Of a stretch of DNA of 32,731 nucleotides, positions 3,779 to 17,165 are shown in pieces. A program made the position numbers and the translations under genes. A model generated the notes under the pieces. It ran no database searches. It was given only the letters and a program-made list of their open reading frames with translations, and had not been told where the DNA came from. Origin of the DNA: Candidatus Moranbacteria bacterium CG23_combo_of_CG06-09_8_20_14_all_35_22. GTDB lineage: Bacteria > Patescibacteriota > Minisyncoccia > Moranbacterales > UBA2206. The first letter of the stretch is position 1; the number at the start of each line of letters is the position of its first letter. Where the stretch lies: NCBI GenBank assembly GCA_002772115.1, contig PCRW01000076.1, forward strand, positions 1,802 through 34,532, given 5' to 3'.

Positions 3779-4213
3779 TTATTTTTTCTTCAAAATTTTC
3801 TTTGCTTCTTTCAAGAAATCCACTGCACTTTCCAACATACTTTCAGTTCCGGTTTTGTCAAAATCGCCATAATAATCAGCATTTTCACGAAGAGATTTTC
3901 CCAGTTGGAGTGCTTCCAAAAATTTATAACTCAAAATATTTTCTGCAATGTATAAAGATTTCAAAGCTTCCATTAAACAAAAGTGACTTTTCTCACGATA
4001 GCCTTTTTTATAAATCAAAGCCCTAGCTGTATGAAACATTGAATAATAAGTTTGAATTGTGCTCCATTTATAATTCTTTTGTACAAAACTATCTTGGGCT
4101 ATTTTCAAATCTTCCTTGGCTAAATCCAATTCTTTCAAAACTAACTGCTTGGCTTTGAAAAATGTTTTTATCTTTCCTCTCTCTAAACATTTTTCAAATT
4201 CCCTAGTCTTCAT
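3779..4213 (-). CDS. HEPN domain protein (toxin of an MNT-HEPN pair)
   Basis: YYSMFH..RA, GYREKSH and RENADY motifs; the likely start MKTREF overlaps the MNT stop. Confidence 0.88.
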   Translation of the reverse strand: MKTREFEKCLERGKIKTFFKAKQLVLKELDLAKEDLKIAQDSFVQKNYKWSTIQTYYSMFHTARALIYKKGYREKSHFCLMEALKSLYIAENILSYKFLEALQLGKSLRENADYYGDFDKTGTESMLESAVDFLKEAKKILKKK

Positions 4214-4739
4214 TTTTTTCCCAAAGCACTCTGCCTTTTTCAATCTCTTGAAAAAGCAAAGGCTTATTTTTATTAATTTTTATCATTTCATTGGGAGTTT
4301 TCACGATTAACTGAATCTTTTCTGAAAATTCTGAATTATTTATTATTTTTCTCACAACATTTAAGCTATTTGTTAGGACAAATATATCAATATCGCTGTC
4401 TTTTTTGTTCATTCCATCAGCAAACGATCCGAATAAAACAATTCTTATACTTTCCAATCTTAATTTTTCCACCAAAGGCTCAAGCGCTAAAATATTCAAA
4501 AGAATTTTCATTTCCCGAATTAAATTGTTTTTAACATCAGCACTGTAAAGAGAGCTTCTGCCAATTTTTCTACAACTTATCAATTTATGTTTAACTAAAA
4601 GATGCAACGCTAAATTAACCGCCGATTTCTTGACACCTGTTTTTTTTGAAATTTCTTTTTCTTGAAATTCTTCTCCGACATTTTCGCATATAAAAGCTAA
4701 TATCTTTTGTTGAGAAGTTGTGAAAAATATCTCTTTCAT
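4203..4739 (-). CDS. HTH plus minimal nucleotidyltransferase (MNT antitoxin)
   Basis: LFGSFADG....SDIDIFV motif, N-terminal HTH, directly upstream of the HEPN gene. Confidence 0.9.
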   Translation of the reverse strand: MKEIFFTTSQQKILAFICENVGEEFQEKEISKKTGVKKSAVNLALHLLVKHKLISCRKIGRSSLYSADVKNNLIREMKILLNILALEPLVEKLRLESIRIVLFGSFADGMNKKDSDIDIFVLTNSLNVVRKIINNSEFSEKIQLIVKTPNEMIKINKNKPLLFQEIEKGRVLWEKNED

Positions 4740-9886: not shown

Positions 9887-11887
9887 ATGAGTAGTTTGAT
9901 TTCTAGATTTTGGAACAATTTCAAAACTCAACCAGATATGTGGTTCTTTTTTGGGTTTTTATTAACTTTTACGCTAAGTATTAGGAAAGTAATGTTATAC
10001 TTTCCAATCCAAGGAACTTTCAATGAATATTCCGGAGTGTTTATCTACCTTTCAGATGTTTTTCTAATTTTAACTCTAGTTTTCTGGTTTATATCTATAT
10101 TATGCAATGATTTTATTATTTTGTCAAGGTACAGGCTGTGGATAAGTAGTGCTTTCCACAAGTTACCCCCACACCAAAATTATAAATATAATCTCTATAA
10201 AATTAAGATTTATCTAAAAAATAGCCTCAAAATGAGAGCAAAGCGTATTTTTAATTTTTGGTGGAGGGGCATGTACATATTTTTACCTCTATTTTTAGTT
10301 TTTCTTTCTTTTTTATCAATTCTATGGTCGCAAAATCTGTCAATAGCCCTTTTCCGATCATTTAAGCTTTTGGAGTTTTATTTATTATATCTTTATATTA
10401 TTTTCAGATTTGTTTCAAAATTGTTCCACGCCCGCCTGCCAAAAAATTGTTCCGCGCCTATCTGCGACAATAATGTTCCACGCCCGCCTGCCGGCGAGGC
10501 AGGTGGAACATCCATCAATGAGAAGCAAGGATCAACCTCTAATTGTTCCACATGGAACAATTTTGGGCGGGTGGAACAATTTTGGGCGGGTGGAACAATT
10601 TGGTTATTTTTTAACATCATTATAATTTTAGGCTTATTTCAAGCCATAATCGGCATCATTCAATTTTTCCTACAAAAATCAATTGACCTATTTTGGCTTC
10701 GAGAAAGCCTAATTTCACCAGAAATCCTTGGGGTGGCTAAAGTAATCTTAAATGGAGAAAAATACATCCGCGCCTATGGCCTTATGACACATCCTAATGT
10801 TTTGGGTGGATTCTTACTATTTTCTATTGTTATCACATTATTATATAAAAAAATGTTCCATATGAAACATCAACTACCCCCCTCGCCTTTACAAGGAGAT
10901 GGGCAAGGGGTGAGGTTAAGCGATGTTCCACGTGGAACAATATCAGAAAAAAAGATATCTTCAATATCCAATTGTTCCACATGGAACAATTGGATATTTA
11001 GGCTTATTTTAGCCATTCAAATTTTAGCGCTAATCTTAACATTCTCAAAATCAGCCATAATTGGGCTCATTATCGCTCTTATATGCCTATCTGTGCCTGC
11101 CCGCCAAAAAAATGTTCCATGTGGAACACTATCAAAAGAAGAGTTTTATCCAAATTCAAATTGTTCCACGTGGAACAATTCTAAAATACACCTCACCCAA
11201 TCCCTCTCCTTATTAAGGAGAAAGTGGCTCAAGATGTTCCATGTGGAACATTTGAAATTAATAATCCTCTCGGTCTTAATTATTTTAGTATCCATATTTT
11301 TCATAATTAAACCCAATTTGAATTCTTTATTTTTTAATTCCCTAAATGAACGCCTATTTTATCTAAATGTTCCATATGGAACATTTGAGAGTGATCTAGT
11401 ATTGGGAATTGGCGCCGGACAATCAGTCCTAATGATGCAAAAATTTTACTCACAAACTTTAGAATTCTGGCAATATCAGCCTATTCATAATGTTTTTCTA
11501 CTAATATTTAGCGAGTTAGGCTTAATCGGTCTAGGGTTATTTATTTGGTGGTTGTGGAAATTGTTCCACGTGGAACAATTTGAAAATTCACCTCATCCTA
11601 ACCTTCTCCTTATTAAGGAGAAGGAACTTGCCCCCCTCTCCTTTATAAGGAGAGGGGCAGGGGGTGAGGTTAAAATTGTTCCACATGGAACAATAGAAAA
11701 TAACGACTACATATTACACAATAATAATATATATTTGTCAAGTATAATATTCTCTCGATATTTCCAAAGAATTCTTTTAGGTCTTATTTTTATCATGCTT
11801 TTTGACCATTATATCTGGGATATCCAACAGGGGAGCCTCCTATTCTGGCTAACCGCCGGCTTTGTTGCTGGAATAAGCAGGAAATAA
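9887..11887 (+). CDS. O-antigen ligase/Wzy_C-like membrane protein with many repeat-derived inserts
   Basis: RAYGLMTHPNVLGG, TFSKSA, GIGAG, PIHNVFLLIFSELGLIG and FDHY motifs; many transmembrane segments. Confidence 0.82.
   Translation: MSSLISRFWNNFKTQPDMWFFFGFLLTFTLSIRKVMLYFPIQGTFNEYSGVFIYLSDVFLILTLVFWFISILCNDFIILSRYRLWISSAFHKLPPHQNYKYNLYKIKIYLKNSLKMRAKRIFNFWWRGMYIFLPLFLVFLSFLSILWSQNLSIALFRSFKLLEFYLLYLYIIFRFVSKLFHARLPKNCSAPICDNNVPRPPAGEAGGTSINEKQGSTSNCSTWNNFGRVEQFWAGGTIWLFFNIIIILGLFQAIIGIIQFFLQKSIDLFWLRESLISPEILGVAKVILNGEKYIRAYGLMTHPNVLGGFLLFSIVITLLYKKMFHMKHQLPPSPLQGDGQGVRLSDVPRGTISEKKISSISNCSTWNNWIFRLILAIQILALILTFSKSAIIGLIIALICLSVPARQKNVPCGTLSKEEFYPNSNCSTWNNSKIHLTQSLSLLRRKWLKMFHVEHLKLIILSVLIILVSIFFIIKPNLNSLFFNSLNERLFYLNVPYGTFESDLVLGIGAGQSVLMMQKFYSQTLEFWQYQPIHNVFLLIFSELGLIGLGLFIWWLWKLFHVEQFENSPHPNLLLIKEKELAPLSFIRRGAGGEVKIVPHGTIENNDYILHNNNIYLSSIIFSRYFQRILLGLIFIMLFDHYIWDIQQGSLLFWLTAGFVAGISRK
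10137..10145 (-). promoter_or_regulatory. DnaA-box consensus (TTATCCACA) inside the CDS
   Basis: TGTGGATAA on the + strand, with degenerate boxes just downstream (~10152-10172). Confidence 0.4.
10422..11692. promoter_or_regulatory. Cluster of parS centromere-like sites
   Basis: TGTTCCAYRTGRAACA at 10544, 10854, 10924, 10973, 11113, 11162, 11235, 11368, 11562 and 11677; one split site at 10474-10510; several half sites. Confidence 0.88.
10877..11669. repeat. CCTCACCC...CCCTCTCC-GGAGAGGG hairpin repeats (family C)
   Basis: Copies at 10877-10915, 11191-11224 and an inverted doublet at 11591-11669; more in pcrA at 30370-30403 and 32286-32321. Confidence 0.87.
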
Positions 11888-14683: not shown

Positions 14684-17134
14684 TTATAAAACCGTACTCG
14701 CACTAACTTTGTCTCCCGCTTGCGGACGCATAACGCGCACACCTTGAGTGGCTCGACCGAGAACGGAAACGCTGGAAAGAGGAATGCGAATGATTTGACC
14801 TTTTTCGGAAGTTAAAATTAAATCGGTATCAAGCGCGTCCATATTGATAATCGTTGCGCCAATTATTTTTCCGGTTTTGGAAGTGACAGAGGCAGTTTTT
14901 ATTCCAGAACCACCACGCTTTTGGACTTTATAATATTTCAAATCTGATCTTTTTCCAAAGCCGTTTTCCGAAATTGTAAGAAGCTGATTACCTTTTTGAT
15001 TTTTGAAAACCACATCCATTCCAACCACAGCGTCGTCTTTTTTGAGTTTTATTCCACGCACTCCGGCCGCGTTTCGTCCCATTGAACGAACATCTGATTC
15101 TCGAAATCTAATCGCTTGACCATTTCTTGTAGTAATAACTATTTCATCTGTTCCCGTAGTCGCGTCCACCCAACCAAGAGTGTCACCTTTTTCCAATTTT
15201 ATCGCAATGAGTCCTGAACGACGAACATTTTCAAATTCATCTAAAGTAGTTTTCTTGACTGTGCCCATTGCTGTCGTCATCAAAAGATATTTATAAGCAT
15301 CATCTTTGTTGAAAGCAATGATAGCTGTGACAGATTCTTCTTGAGAAAGAGAAAGAAAATTCACAATCGATTGACCTTTGGCAATGCGAGTGGATTCCGG
15401 AATTTCATAGGCTTTAGTTTGAAAAACTTTTCCAGAATTTGTGAAAAATAGCAGATTATCATGCGTCATCACTCCGAGCATTTTTTGAATTTCATCCCCT
15501 TCGCGCGTTGTTGCCCCAATCACTCCTTTGCCTCCGCGCTTTTGAACTTTGTAGGCACTCGGATTCATTCTTTTGACATAACCATCTTTGGAAAGAGTGA
15601 TAATAGCTTCTTCATTGGGCACTAAATCTTCTTGCCGAAATTCTCCCACACCAGATTTTATCACTTTCGTTCTTCTTTCATCACCATATTTTTCCTTAAC
15701 ACGAGCTAATTCATCTTTGATAATAGAAAATATTTTTTTCTCACTTTTTAGAATAGCTTCAAGCTGGGCAATCAGTTTTATTTTTTCTACTAATTCGTCT
15801 TCAATTTTCTTTCGTTCTAGTCCAGCCAAGGTTTGCAATTTCATTTCCAAAATAGCCGTAGCTTGCTTTTCTGACAGTTTGAATTTTTTCATTAAATTCT
15901 TATGCGCTTCTTCTTTAGTAGGAGATTTTTTGATTGTTTCAATCACTGCGTCAATGTGATCTAGCGCAATTTTCAATCCTTCCAAAATATGCGCGCGATC
16001 CCGAGCTTTTTCTAAATCAAATTTAGTTCTTCTAATTATCACAATTTTTCGGTGCGCTACATATTCCTCTAAAATTGTTTTTAAATTCAAAACTTTCGGC
16101 TCGATACCATTGACCAGCGCTAGCATATTGACACCAAAATTTTTCTGAAGATCAGTCAGAGAATAAAGTTTATTCAAAACTTTTTGCGGATAGGCATCCT
16201 TTTTCAAATCTACCACAATTCGCACGCCTTCCTTGTCCGATTCATCGCGTAAATCTTTTATACCAACAATTTTTCCATCGCGAACTAAATTGGCCATAGT
16301 TTCAATCAGTGTGGCCTTGTTGGTAGCATAAGTTATTTCGCTAATCACTATTTGAAAAGTTCCGGTTTTGCTTTCTACGATATCTGCTTTACCCCGTGTT
16401 AAAATTTTTCCTCGACCAGTTTTATACGCTTCGACAATATCCTTTTTATTATAAATTATTCCACCAGTTGGAAAATCCGGTCCCTTGATAAATTCTGAAA
16501 GTTCTTCAATAGAAATTTCCGGATTATCAATCAAACTATTTATACCATCTACCAATTCAGAAAGATTATGCGGAGGAATGTTGGTCGCCATTCCCACCGC
16601 AATTCCCATTGAACCATTTAATAATAATTGCGGAAGTCTGGCTGGAAGCACTGCCGGTTCTTTGTGCTGACCGTCAAAATTAGGCACAAAATCCACTGTG
16701 TTTTTTTCAATGTCAATCAGCATTTCTTCTGCCATTTGGGAAAGTTTAGCTTCCGTATAACGATAAGCCGCTACACCGTCGCCGTCCATTGAACCGAAGT
16801 TTCCTTGACCTTTGACCATCGGATAGCGCAAAGAAAAATCCTGTGCCATTCTTACCATTGAATCATAAACGGCCACATCGCCATGTGGATGATATTTTCC
16901 CAAAACTTCTCCCACCACCGTAGCTGATTTTCGAAATTTCGCGCTAGCACGAAGACCCGACTGCCACATTGAATAAAGAATTCGTCGATGCACTGGTTTC
17001 AATCCATCGCGAACATCAGGCAAAGCGCGCGAAACAATCACGCTCATAGCATAATCCAAATAGGATTGTTGAATTTCCAAAGTTATTTCTCTAGCTTGAA
17101 TATTTTTATCTATATTATTTATTTCTTCTGGCAT
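14684..17134 (-). CDS. gyrA: DNA gyrase subunit A
   Basis: [24 protein letters not shown], catalytic RYTE and GyrA box QKRGGKG; ATG at 17134 preferred over GTG at 17152. Confidence 0.98.
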
Positions 17135-17165
17135 ATTATTTTTATAAGGCACTAAAAAATTAAAC

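Follow-up and report, generated by a model that had tools for sequence, protein, structure and literature searches.

The window analysed here, a stretch of 32,731 nucleotides from a metagenome-assembled genome (MAG) of Candidatus Moranbacteria in the Patescibacteria (the source genome, G000; contig C43, positions 1802-34532), carries a 666-codon open reading frame (ORF) for a polytopic membrane protein that resembles the O-antigen ligase WaaL. Within 1.15 kb of this ORF, from 10544 to 11692, lie ten parS-like palindromes, and we consider it probable, at roughly 0.8, that this stretch is the parS array of the chromosome, a putative ParB loading zone set within the coding DNA of a functional WaaL-like gene. 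An earlier note, made from the letters of this DNA, had proposed a coding sequence that doubles as a compact centromere, and as a putative assignment the proposal has held up: the motif is confined to the gene, a complete parB is encoded, the same confinement is seen at 28 of 30 loci of relatives, the gene carries sites at 80 of 80 public loci, and dnaA lies 15-59 kb from it in five of five relatives that have the two on one contig.

Ten parS-like sites in one reading frame

Searched with the palindrome TGTTCCACGTGGAACA at up to two mismatches, the window yields nine matches, all within 10544-11692, where 100 shuffles of the window lead one to expect 0.00; the looser pattern GTTCCANNTGGAAC at up to one mismatch yields ten, with 0.03 expected by shuffling. 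The 16-bp inverted repeat fits what we take to be the parS consensus, of the TGTTNCACGTGAAACA type, and in its 22-bp form a perfect site reads AATTGTTCCACGTGGAACAATT. Counted by mismatches to TGTTCCACGTGGAACA, three sites are exact, five have one, one has two and one has three. The earlier description of "ten intact parS sites" was right in that ten parS-like palindromes lie in the ORF, but "intact" was too strong, because only three are perfect and the mismatches, all but one, are transitions in the central CpG, which is gone from seven of the ten. Nor does the array begin at 10422 as had been stated, since that position holds a half-site, TGTTCCAC, and no full site. This loss of CpG is unusual within the genus, affecting seven of ten sites in the source genome (CACGTG to CACATG, CATGTG or CATATG) versus 0-2 of the 3-8 sites in each of eight genus mates, and CpG is not depleted genome-wide, with an observed/expected ratio of 1.10.

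A scan of the whole assembly (905,852 bp in 82 contigs, 34.6% G+C, estimated completeness 94%), set beforehand as a test of the idea, found no dispersal of the motif: ten of ten matches to TGTTYCAYRTGRAACA fall inside the ORF at 9887..11887, and the sole near-miss elsewhere is GTTTCAATTGGAAC on contig C13. The frame is open on the plus strand over all 666 codons, as had been said, and the claim that the palindrome is translated in all three frames was likewise confirmed over the ten sites, which are read as CSTWN in frame 0 (three sites), as (M/L)FH(V/M)(E/K)(H/Q) in frame 1 (three) and as VP(R/C/Y/H)GT in frame 2 (four).

Distribution among relatives and across the phylum

The order-level set comprised 41 genomes, the source genome and 40 relatives of the same order. 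Orthologues of the host protein at E <= 1e-10 were found in 34 of the 41, and 30 loci were fetched for site placement. A public genome collection has 208 stretches that code for a relative of the protein, and the best 80 loci (79 assemblies; L045-L124) supply all counts given here for 80 loci. Beyond the order we used a class sample of 97 genomes (in the range G041-G137) and a phylum sample of 151.

Within the order the motif occurs in 37 of 41 genomes, with 1-13 copies each, and a reversed-pattern control occurs in none of the 41. At 28 of the 30 placed loci all parS sites of the genome lie within the orthologous ORF. The exceptions are G004, whose ORF has 7 of 13 sites and which shows a further copy of the gene on contig C74 and 8% contamination, and G009, where 3 of 4 sites are in the ORF and a contig end cuts the gene. 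The public loci show the same confinement on a larger scale, since every one of the 80 genes carries sites (2-17 each, median 7) and 602 sites lie in the gene with only one just beyond it, over 531 kb of flanks. The variants found among relatives are TGTTCCACGTGGAACA, TGTTTCACGTGGAACA and TGTTTCACGTGAAACA.

Some lineages hold their sites outside any gene. Arrays of 5-12 perfect sites in DNA that has no long ORF are present in G025, G028, G030 and G032; the one in G028 adjoins a neighbour gene that also stands beside the in-gene arrays of G039 and G036, and G032 encodes a 478-aa homologue of the host protein elsewhere in the genome, free of parS. When four of the loci (L004, L005, L006 and L014) were searched with tblastn for remnants of the ORF, the matches were mainly short ones to translated parS, with no gene remnant among the matches listed. 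Dense non-coding arrays, of 5-12 perfect parS sites within 0.6-1.2 kb, were seen at these four loci in the order and at L192-L194; three of the four in the order are followed by a tRNA-like gene, as read by eye, and the array at L006 contains two TGTGGATAA boxes.

Farther out, the strict motif occurs in 22 of the 97 class genomes, with sites within homologues of the host gene at 6 of the 22 loci, and in 35 of the 151 phylum genomes. Among 27 loci from other classes, eight have sites inside a Wzy_C-like homologue (seven sites in one case), four further loci have such a homologue inside the 3-kb locus, and the remainder include non-coding arrays. In one family (f80; L173-L179) 1-3 canonical TGTTTCACGTGAAACA sites lie in or beside a class-I aminoacyl-tRNA synthetase gene.

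An assembly artefact was considered as the source of the array and rejected, as the array recurs in contigs from other sequencing runs and in more than 100 independent assemblies; a contig from another groundwater run (X6) matches 10473-11756 with 0 differences, and one from a further run (X7) matches 10473-11569 with 1 difference.

Two codes on the same DNA

Over the 80 loci, the 602 in-gene sites divide between frames 0, 1 and 2 as 141, 188 and 273, and are translated respectively as CSTWN, (M/L)FHVE(H/Q) and (N/I)VPRGT. Because one 16-mer read in three frames gives three unrelated peptides, the palindromes are selected at the level of DNA, which bears out what the earlier note had said of their conservation. 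DNA and protein are here selected simultaneously, and the array is therefore an overlapping code. The coding frame also limits the letters that a site may have: at site position 12 an A, which would create TGA in frame 0, is found in none of the 141 frame-0 sites versus 12 of 188 in frame 1 and 17 of 273 in frame 2. The form TGTTCCACGTGGAACA is stop-free in all six frames, so that an insert that is a whole number of codons long fits any frame, and this CC/GG variant accounts for 504 of the 602 sites. Flanking bases lengthen the palindrome, which becomes AAWTGTTCCACGTGGAACAWTT; 91% of sites have A at -2 and 87% have T at +2.

Across the lineage the sites are spaced at a median of 133 bp (18-1020) and the arrays span a median of 1100 bp. 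Each additional site goes with an ORF about 10 aa longer (rho 0.55 over 73 complete ORFs), and parS-free homologues have 437-513 aa. One site is conserved in position, at '..fyl-NV(P/S)R(G/E)T', where 19 of 27 orthologues have parS; the copy in the source genome is the eroded site at 11368, and the amino-acid changes seen at this position are those that parS variants permit.

The host gene and its product

The host protein scores 31.7 bits against Pfam Wzy_C, where the cut-off is 31.7, and 35.1 bits in the genome scan, while shorter homologues reach 38.5-58.7 bits; no NCBIfam model matches it. Its AlphaFold2 model, built with 23 orthologues, has a mean predicted local distance difference test (pLDDT) score of 65.6 and a predicted template-modelling score (pTM) of 0.72. 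In VIA-align this model is superimposed on the WaaL O-antigen ligase 7tpg_B with Z 22.4 (root-mean-square deviation 4.4, 346 of 403 positions aligned), and the next matches, SEDS chains, follow at Z 11-12.5. Foldseek returned nothing for the model at E <= 0.001, its WaaL match standing at E 0.054, so the fold assignment rests on the VIA alignment. By manual mapping on the model, six of the ten sites lie inside or border on non-helical segments whose pLDDT is under 50 (183-234, 336-363, 406-431 and 566-616), and the remaining four lie at helix ends or short turns; the model thus supports the earlier statement that the sites fall mostly in hydrophilic inserts. The genome has six Wzy_C matches, and parS is found in this one only.

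The ORF could be imagined as an open but non-functional relic that merely houses a non-coding array, and to this idea belong the loops, which account for roughly one third of the protein and change rapidly (the ratio of nonsynonymous to synonymous substitution rates, dN/dS, against eight genus mates is 0.42-0.81 in the low-confidence loops), the arrays of some lineages that lack any ORF, and the Pfam score exactly at its cut-off. Yet the confidently modelled core has a dN/dS of 0.17-0.24 in the same comparison, 49 columns are invariant across the 23 orthologues, the model has the WaaL fold, and at 80 of 80 loci a single open frame spans at least 87% of the matched span with the sites in all three frames. 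We regard a relic as the least probable of the readings weighed in this text, with hardly any weight left to it; on its sequence and model, the host gene is functional, and its protein is under selection and has a WaaL-type fold.

ParB and the identity of the palindrome

The earlier note had named a missing parB as a possible refutation, and a complete ParB is encoded on contig C77 (156-1058; TIGR00180, 200.6 bits), with ParB_N, HTH_ParB and ParB_C domains and with the GERRFQAA motif and an N-terminal LGRGL motif in its sequence. The protein is equally similar to the Spo0J chain of 4umk (6e-53) and to Noc chains (1.5e-53), which brings the Noc/NBS system of Firmicutes into consideration. According to the portion of the specificity study consulted (PMC7383237), the residues that distinguish the two are R173, T179, A184 and G201 in ParB (Caulobacter numbering) and Q, K, K and R in Noc, which binds NBS. 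The source-genome protein has R, K, N and G at the four positions, as read off its HMMER alignment to Noc, and is by this alignment parS-type at the two switching positions, R and G, within what that portion of the study covers; motif positions 1 and 6 (T and C) are also parS-type rather than NBS-type. parA stands just upstream of parB in 39 of the 41 order genomes. The source genome has one SMC-like gene (C55:12655-14985; L148), whose 794-aa frame matches the SMC model at positions 1-403 and 865-1181 only, which suggests a protein with a much shortened coiled coil.

If these components act together, ParB dimers of the Spo0J type would nucleate on each palindrome, close as cytidine triphosphate (CTP) clamps and slide over the flanks. 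The loaded clamps would then form one partition complex in the origin-proximal region, and this complex would act with ParA and the SMC-like protein.

The palindrome might instead be no ParB site at all, but a palindromic repeat that amplifies locally, or a site for some other DNA-binding protein. Short palindromic repeats of other kinds do enter reading frames without breaking them, here and elsewhere, some parS copies have been duplicated jointly with a hairpin, and the canonical motif is missing from most ParB-positive genomes of the class. We nevertheless hold this to be very improbable, as the motif matches the canonical parS palindrome letter for letter, keeps strictly to a single locus in each genome, unlike the dispersed hairpins described below, and is conserved throughout the lineage and beyond, and as the ParB of the genome carries parS-type residues.

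Position relative to dnaA and the choice of gene

The host gene and dnaA share a contig in five of ten relatives tested and are on different contigs in the other five. In genomes of 0.9-1.1 Mb, the distance between them on the shared contig is about 15 kb in G012, 48 kb in G020, 49 kb in G016, 57 kb in G024 and 59 kb in G005. In G016 the minimum of cumulative GC skew, at 125-130 kb, falls at dnaA, with the gene at 77 kb. parAB stands apart from the array, 185 kb away in G016. Within 4 kb of the host gene are the CCA-adding enzyme gene at 45 of the 80 loci and gyrA at 36.

The gene is also enriched in perfect DnaA boxes (TTATCCACA/TGTGGATAA), of which 38 occur in 31 of the 80 ORFs, at 0.276 per kb versus 0.034 per kb in the flanks; four composition-matched control 9-mers reach at most 0.015 per kb. 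Most of the boxes fall within the opening fifth of the ORF, where they occur in either orientation and in several frames; of the 19 L/VWI peptides in this fifth, 17 are encoded by the box itself.

How this one gene came to hold the sites is a further question. We think it most likely that the gene is a tolerated 'safe harbour' and not a required partner, its position being simply inherited. If functional coupling kept the centromere there, it could be through a transertion tether, in which the polytopic protein, inserted into the membrane during translation, ties the parS region to the envelope, or through occupancy by ParB (and DnaA) that links expression of an envelope-glycan enzyme to replication and segregation. 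Such coupling would account for a link between parS and the gene that persists across Moranbacteria and is met again in further families and classes of the phylum, for the presence of sites in only one of the six Wzy_C paralogues of the source genome, and for the DnaA boxes. Inherited position could by itself account for the link, however, and sister lineages (G025, G028, G030 and G032) have dense non-coding arrays, in G028 next to a neighbour gene that the in-gene arrays of G039 and G036 also adjoin, and in one other family of the phylum the host is a class-I aminoacyl-tRNA synthetase gene. Since such non-coding and synthetase-hosted arrays exist, a mechanistic requirement for the gene is less likely, and coupling is in our judgement unlikely; it keeps some weight because the association is broad and the DnaA boxes are co-enriched.

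A bolder proposal, to which we give a shade less credence still, is that the WaaL-like gene is a chromosome-organising hub in which Patescibacteria keep their entire parS array, and often DnaA boxes, for a functional reason. Coupled transcription, translation and membrane insertion may anchor the origin-proximal centromere to the envelope, replacing polar anchoring proteins that such reduced cells possibly lack, or the occupancy of the gene by ParB and DnaA may gate synthesis of the envelope-glycan enzyme to the cell cycle.

Evidence at odds with a centromere

Several observations sit poorly with the array being the centromere. At class level the co-occurrence of ParB and canonical parS is weak: the motif is present in 21 of 82 ParB-positive and 1 of 15 ParB-negative genomes, and canonical parS, TGTTYCACGTGRAACA, was accordingly not found in 61 of the 82 that encode ParB. 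In the order, no motif was found in G011, G014, G026 and G038, which have ParAB, and G024 has eight sites, yet neither ParB nor ParA was found in it. In the source genome the sites themselves are imperfect, with three of ten exact and seven without the central CpG, and in the part of the Corynebacterium glutamicum study drawn on here (PMC7083940) sites with three or more mismatches were not bound. ParA (PF13614) was not found in the source genome, where only 156 nt separate parB from the end of its contig. The array (C43), dnaA (C33) and parB (C77) of this genome lie on separate contigs. The relatives are all MAGs and are non-independent samples.

Relation to known systems

The parS sites of ParB centromeres are usually described as scattered and mostly intergenic. 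Some plasmid centromeres, such as sopC of F, are non-coding tandem repeats of a fixed unit; like these, the present array is dense in ParB-type sites and would form one partition complex, but the sites in the WaaL-like gene are irregularly spaced, at 18-1020 bp, and translated. Isolated intragenic parS sites are known as well, among them the single site inside spo0J (parB) of Bacillus subtilis, which shows, as the present array does, that parS in coding DNA can leave a gene intact. Those sites are single and lie in different genes, whereas here the full complement of 2-17 is in one gene, in three frames and at a cost of about 10 aa per site. Rickettsia palindromic elements are short palindromic repeats that stand in frame within protein genes; they resemble the present case in that palindromes occupy tolerant parts of a protein, and the two hairpin families of the gene behave in just this way, but parS is limited to one gene per genome and has a known protein partner encoded. 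In the source genome no copy of parS lies outside the gene, so that it lacks the dispersal of such elements. The nearest chromosomal counterpart is that of C. glutamicum, which has ten parS sites over 35 kb, nine of them intergenic and one in trpCF (PMC7083940). As far as that part of the study goes, the two share the 16-bp consensus, a ParB of the same family, a clustering of copies tens of kb from oriC (predicted, for the present array, from its relatives) and the occurrence of a coding site, and differ in that the ten sites are here within 1.15 kb and all in one ORF, in a host gene that is the same at 80 of 80 loci. A literature search that covered few subscription journals turned up no previous account of parS arrays, whether in Patescibacteria or within any O-antigen-ligase gene.

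If the assignment is correct, an ultra-small bacterial lineage packs a complete putative centromere into one reading frame, with up to 17 sites and about one site per 130 bp. This would be a natural instance of DNA that serves both as protein code and as protein-binding array, recognisable by its signature, a stop-free parS variant with no TGA in frame 0. It would make testable now how one gene accommodates both ParB clamps and RNA polymerase and how centromere arrays grow, erode and relocate, with the sister lineages that have non-coding arrays as a comparison set. In practical terms, the host gene could mark the origin-proximal region in fragmented Patescibacteria MAGs, and the array would explain the odd repeated peptides CSTWN, VPRGT and FHVE in predicted proteins.

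Half-sites, hairpins and local multiplication

Besides the ten sites, the gene contains half-sites, hairpins and larger repeat modules (Table 1). The earlier note had supposed that parS spreads like the other in-frame repeats of the gene, and this did not hold: the hairpins are dispersed, the G+C-rich CCCGCCTGCCGGCGAGGCAGG at 17 places across many contigs of the source genome and CTCTCCTTTATAAGGAGAG at nine, whereas parS multiplies only locally, within the gene. Part of this local multiplication has proceeded by modules of about 65 nt that join parS to a hairpin, in both orientations. The module at 11158..11228 has a second copy at 11558-11625 (89% identical) and inverted copies at 10877-10941 and 11631-11694. 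In the history that we propose, there would have been one ancestral in-gene site, at the NV(S/P)R(G/E)T loop, and local duplication would then have seeded the remaining insertion-tolerant loops. At genus level the loops are species-specific mosaics of parS, half-sites and hairpin modules, and the helices remain aligned; in G002 and G008 hairpin-split sites occur at other loop positions, where the site of the source genome is intact.

Table 1. Positions in the window of the host gene, its parS-like sites and other features discussed in the text
Feature	Position	Strand	Remarks
Polytopic WaaL/O-antigen-ligase-like (Wzy_C) membrane protein gene	9887..11887	+	666 codons; from ORF, Pfam, model and dN/dS
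Perfect DnaA box TGTGGATAA in ORF	10137..10145	.	codons LWI
Left half-sites TGTTCCAC (10422-10429) and TGTTCCGC (10448-10455)	10422..10455	.	part of the G+C-rich repeat after each
parS split centrally by a 21-nt G+C-rich hairpin	10474..10510	.	in frame, NVPRPPAGEAGGT
parS-like, TGTTCCACATGGAACA	10544..10559	.	1 mismatch; frame 0, CSTWN
Tandem 19-nt units with right half-sites GTGGAACA (10571, 10590)	10552..10602	.	repeat families D5, D15
Degenerate parS, TGTTCCATATGAAACA	10854..10869	.	3 mismatches to palindrome; frame 1, MFHMKH
Exact parS, TGTTCCACGTGGAACA	10924..10939	.	frame 2, VPRGT
parS-like, CACATG core	10973..10988	.	1 mismatch; frame 0, CSTWN
parS-like, CATGTG core	11113..11128	.	1 mismatch; frame 2, VPCGT
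Module of ~65 nt, parS and CTCTCCTTATTAAGGAGA hairpin	11158..11228	+	repeats D6, D10, I3, I12
Exact parS	11162..11177	.	frame 0, CSTWN
parS-like	11235..11250	.	1 mismatch; frame 1, MFHVEH; position recurs in orthologues
parS-like, CATATG core	11368..11383	.	2 mismatches; frame 2, NVPYGT; positionally conserved site
Exact parS	11562..11577	.	frame 1, LFHVEQ
parS-like	11677..11692	.	1 mismatch; frame 2, VPHGT
gyrA	14684-17152

The CCCGCCTGCCGGCGAGGCAGG hairpin usually forms the middle of a larger inverted repeat that is specific to the locus, as though palindrome centres were its points of insertion, and at 10474-10510 it separates parS exactly between the half-sites, in frame. A second hairpin family, (C)CCCTCTCCTTTATAAGGAGAGGG...GGGGTGAGGT, has nine places in the genome, in the window at 10877-10919, 11190-11228, 11590-11673 and about 32288, and on other contigs. 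Its copies within the gene are translated, in either orientation, as PLSFIRRGAGGEV or HPNLLLIKEKE, and these peptides recur in genus mates at differing loop positions. An in-frame insert of 36 codons at 10166-10273, PPHQNYKYNLYKIKIYLKN..., is common, among nine members of the genus, to the source genome and G001 only; its first bases are a short repeat, ACCCCCACACCAAAA, that has five other places in the genome.

Across the window, GC skew tracks gene orientation and a clear switch was not seen. Overlapping genes for a nucleotidyltransferase (Polbeta/NTP_transf_2) and a HEPN-domain protein occupy 3779-4739 on the minus strand, in a layout that resembles a HEPN/MNT toxin-antitoxin pair.

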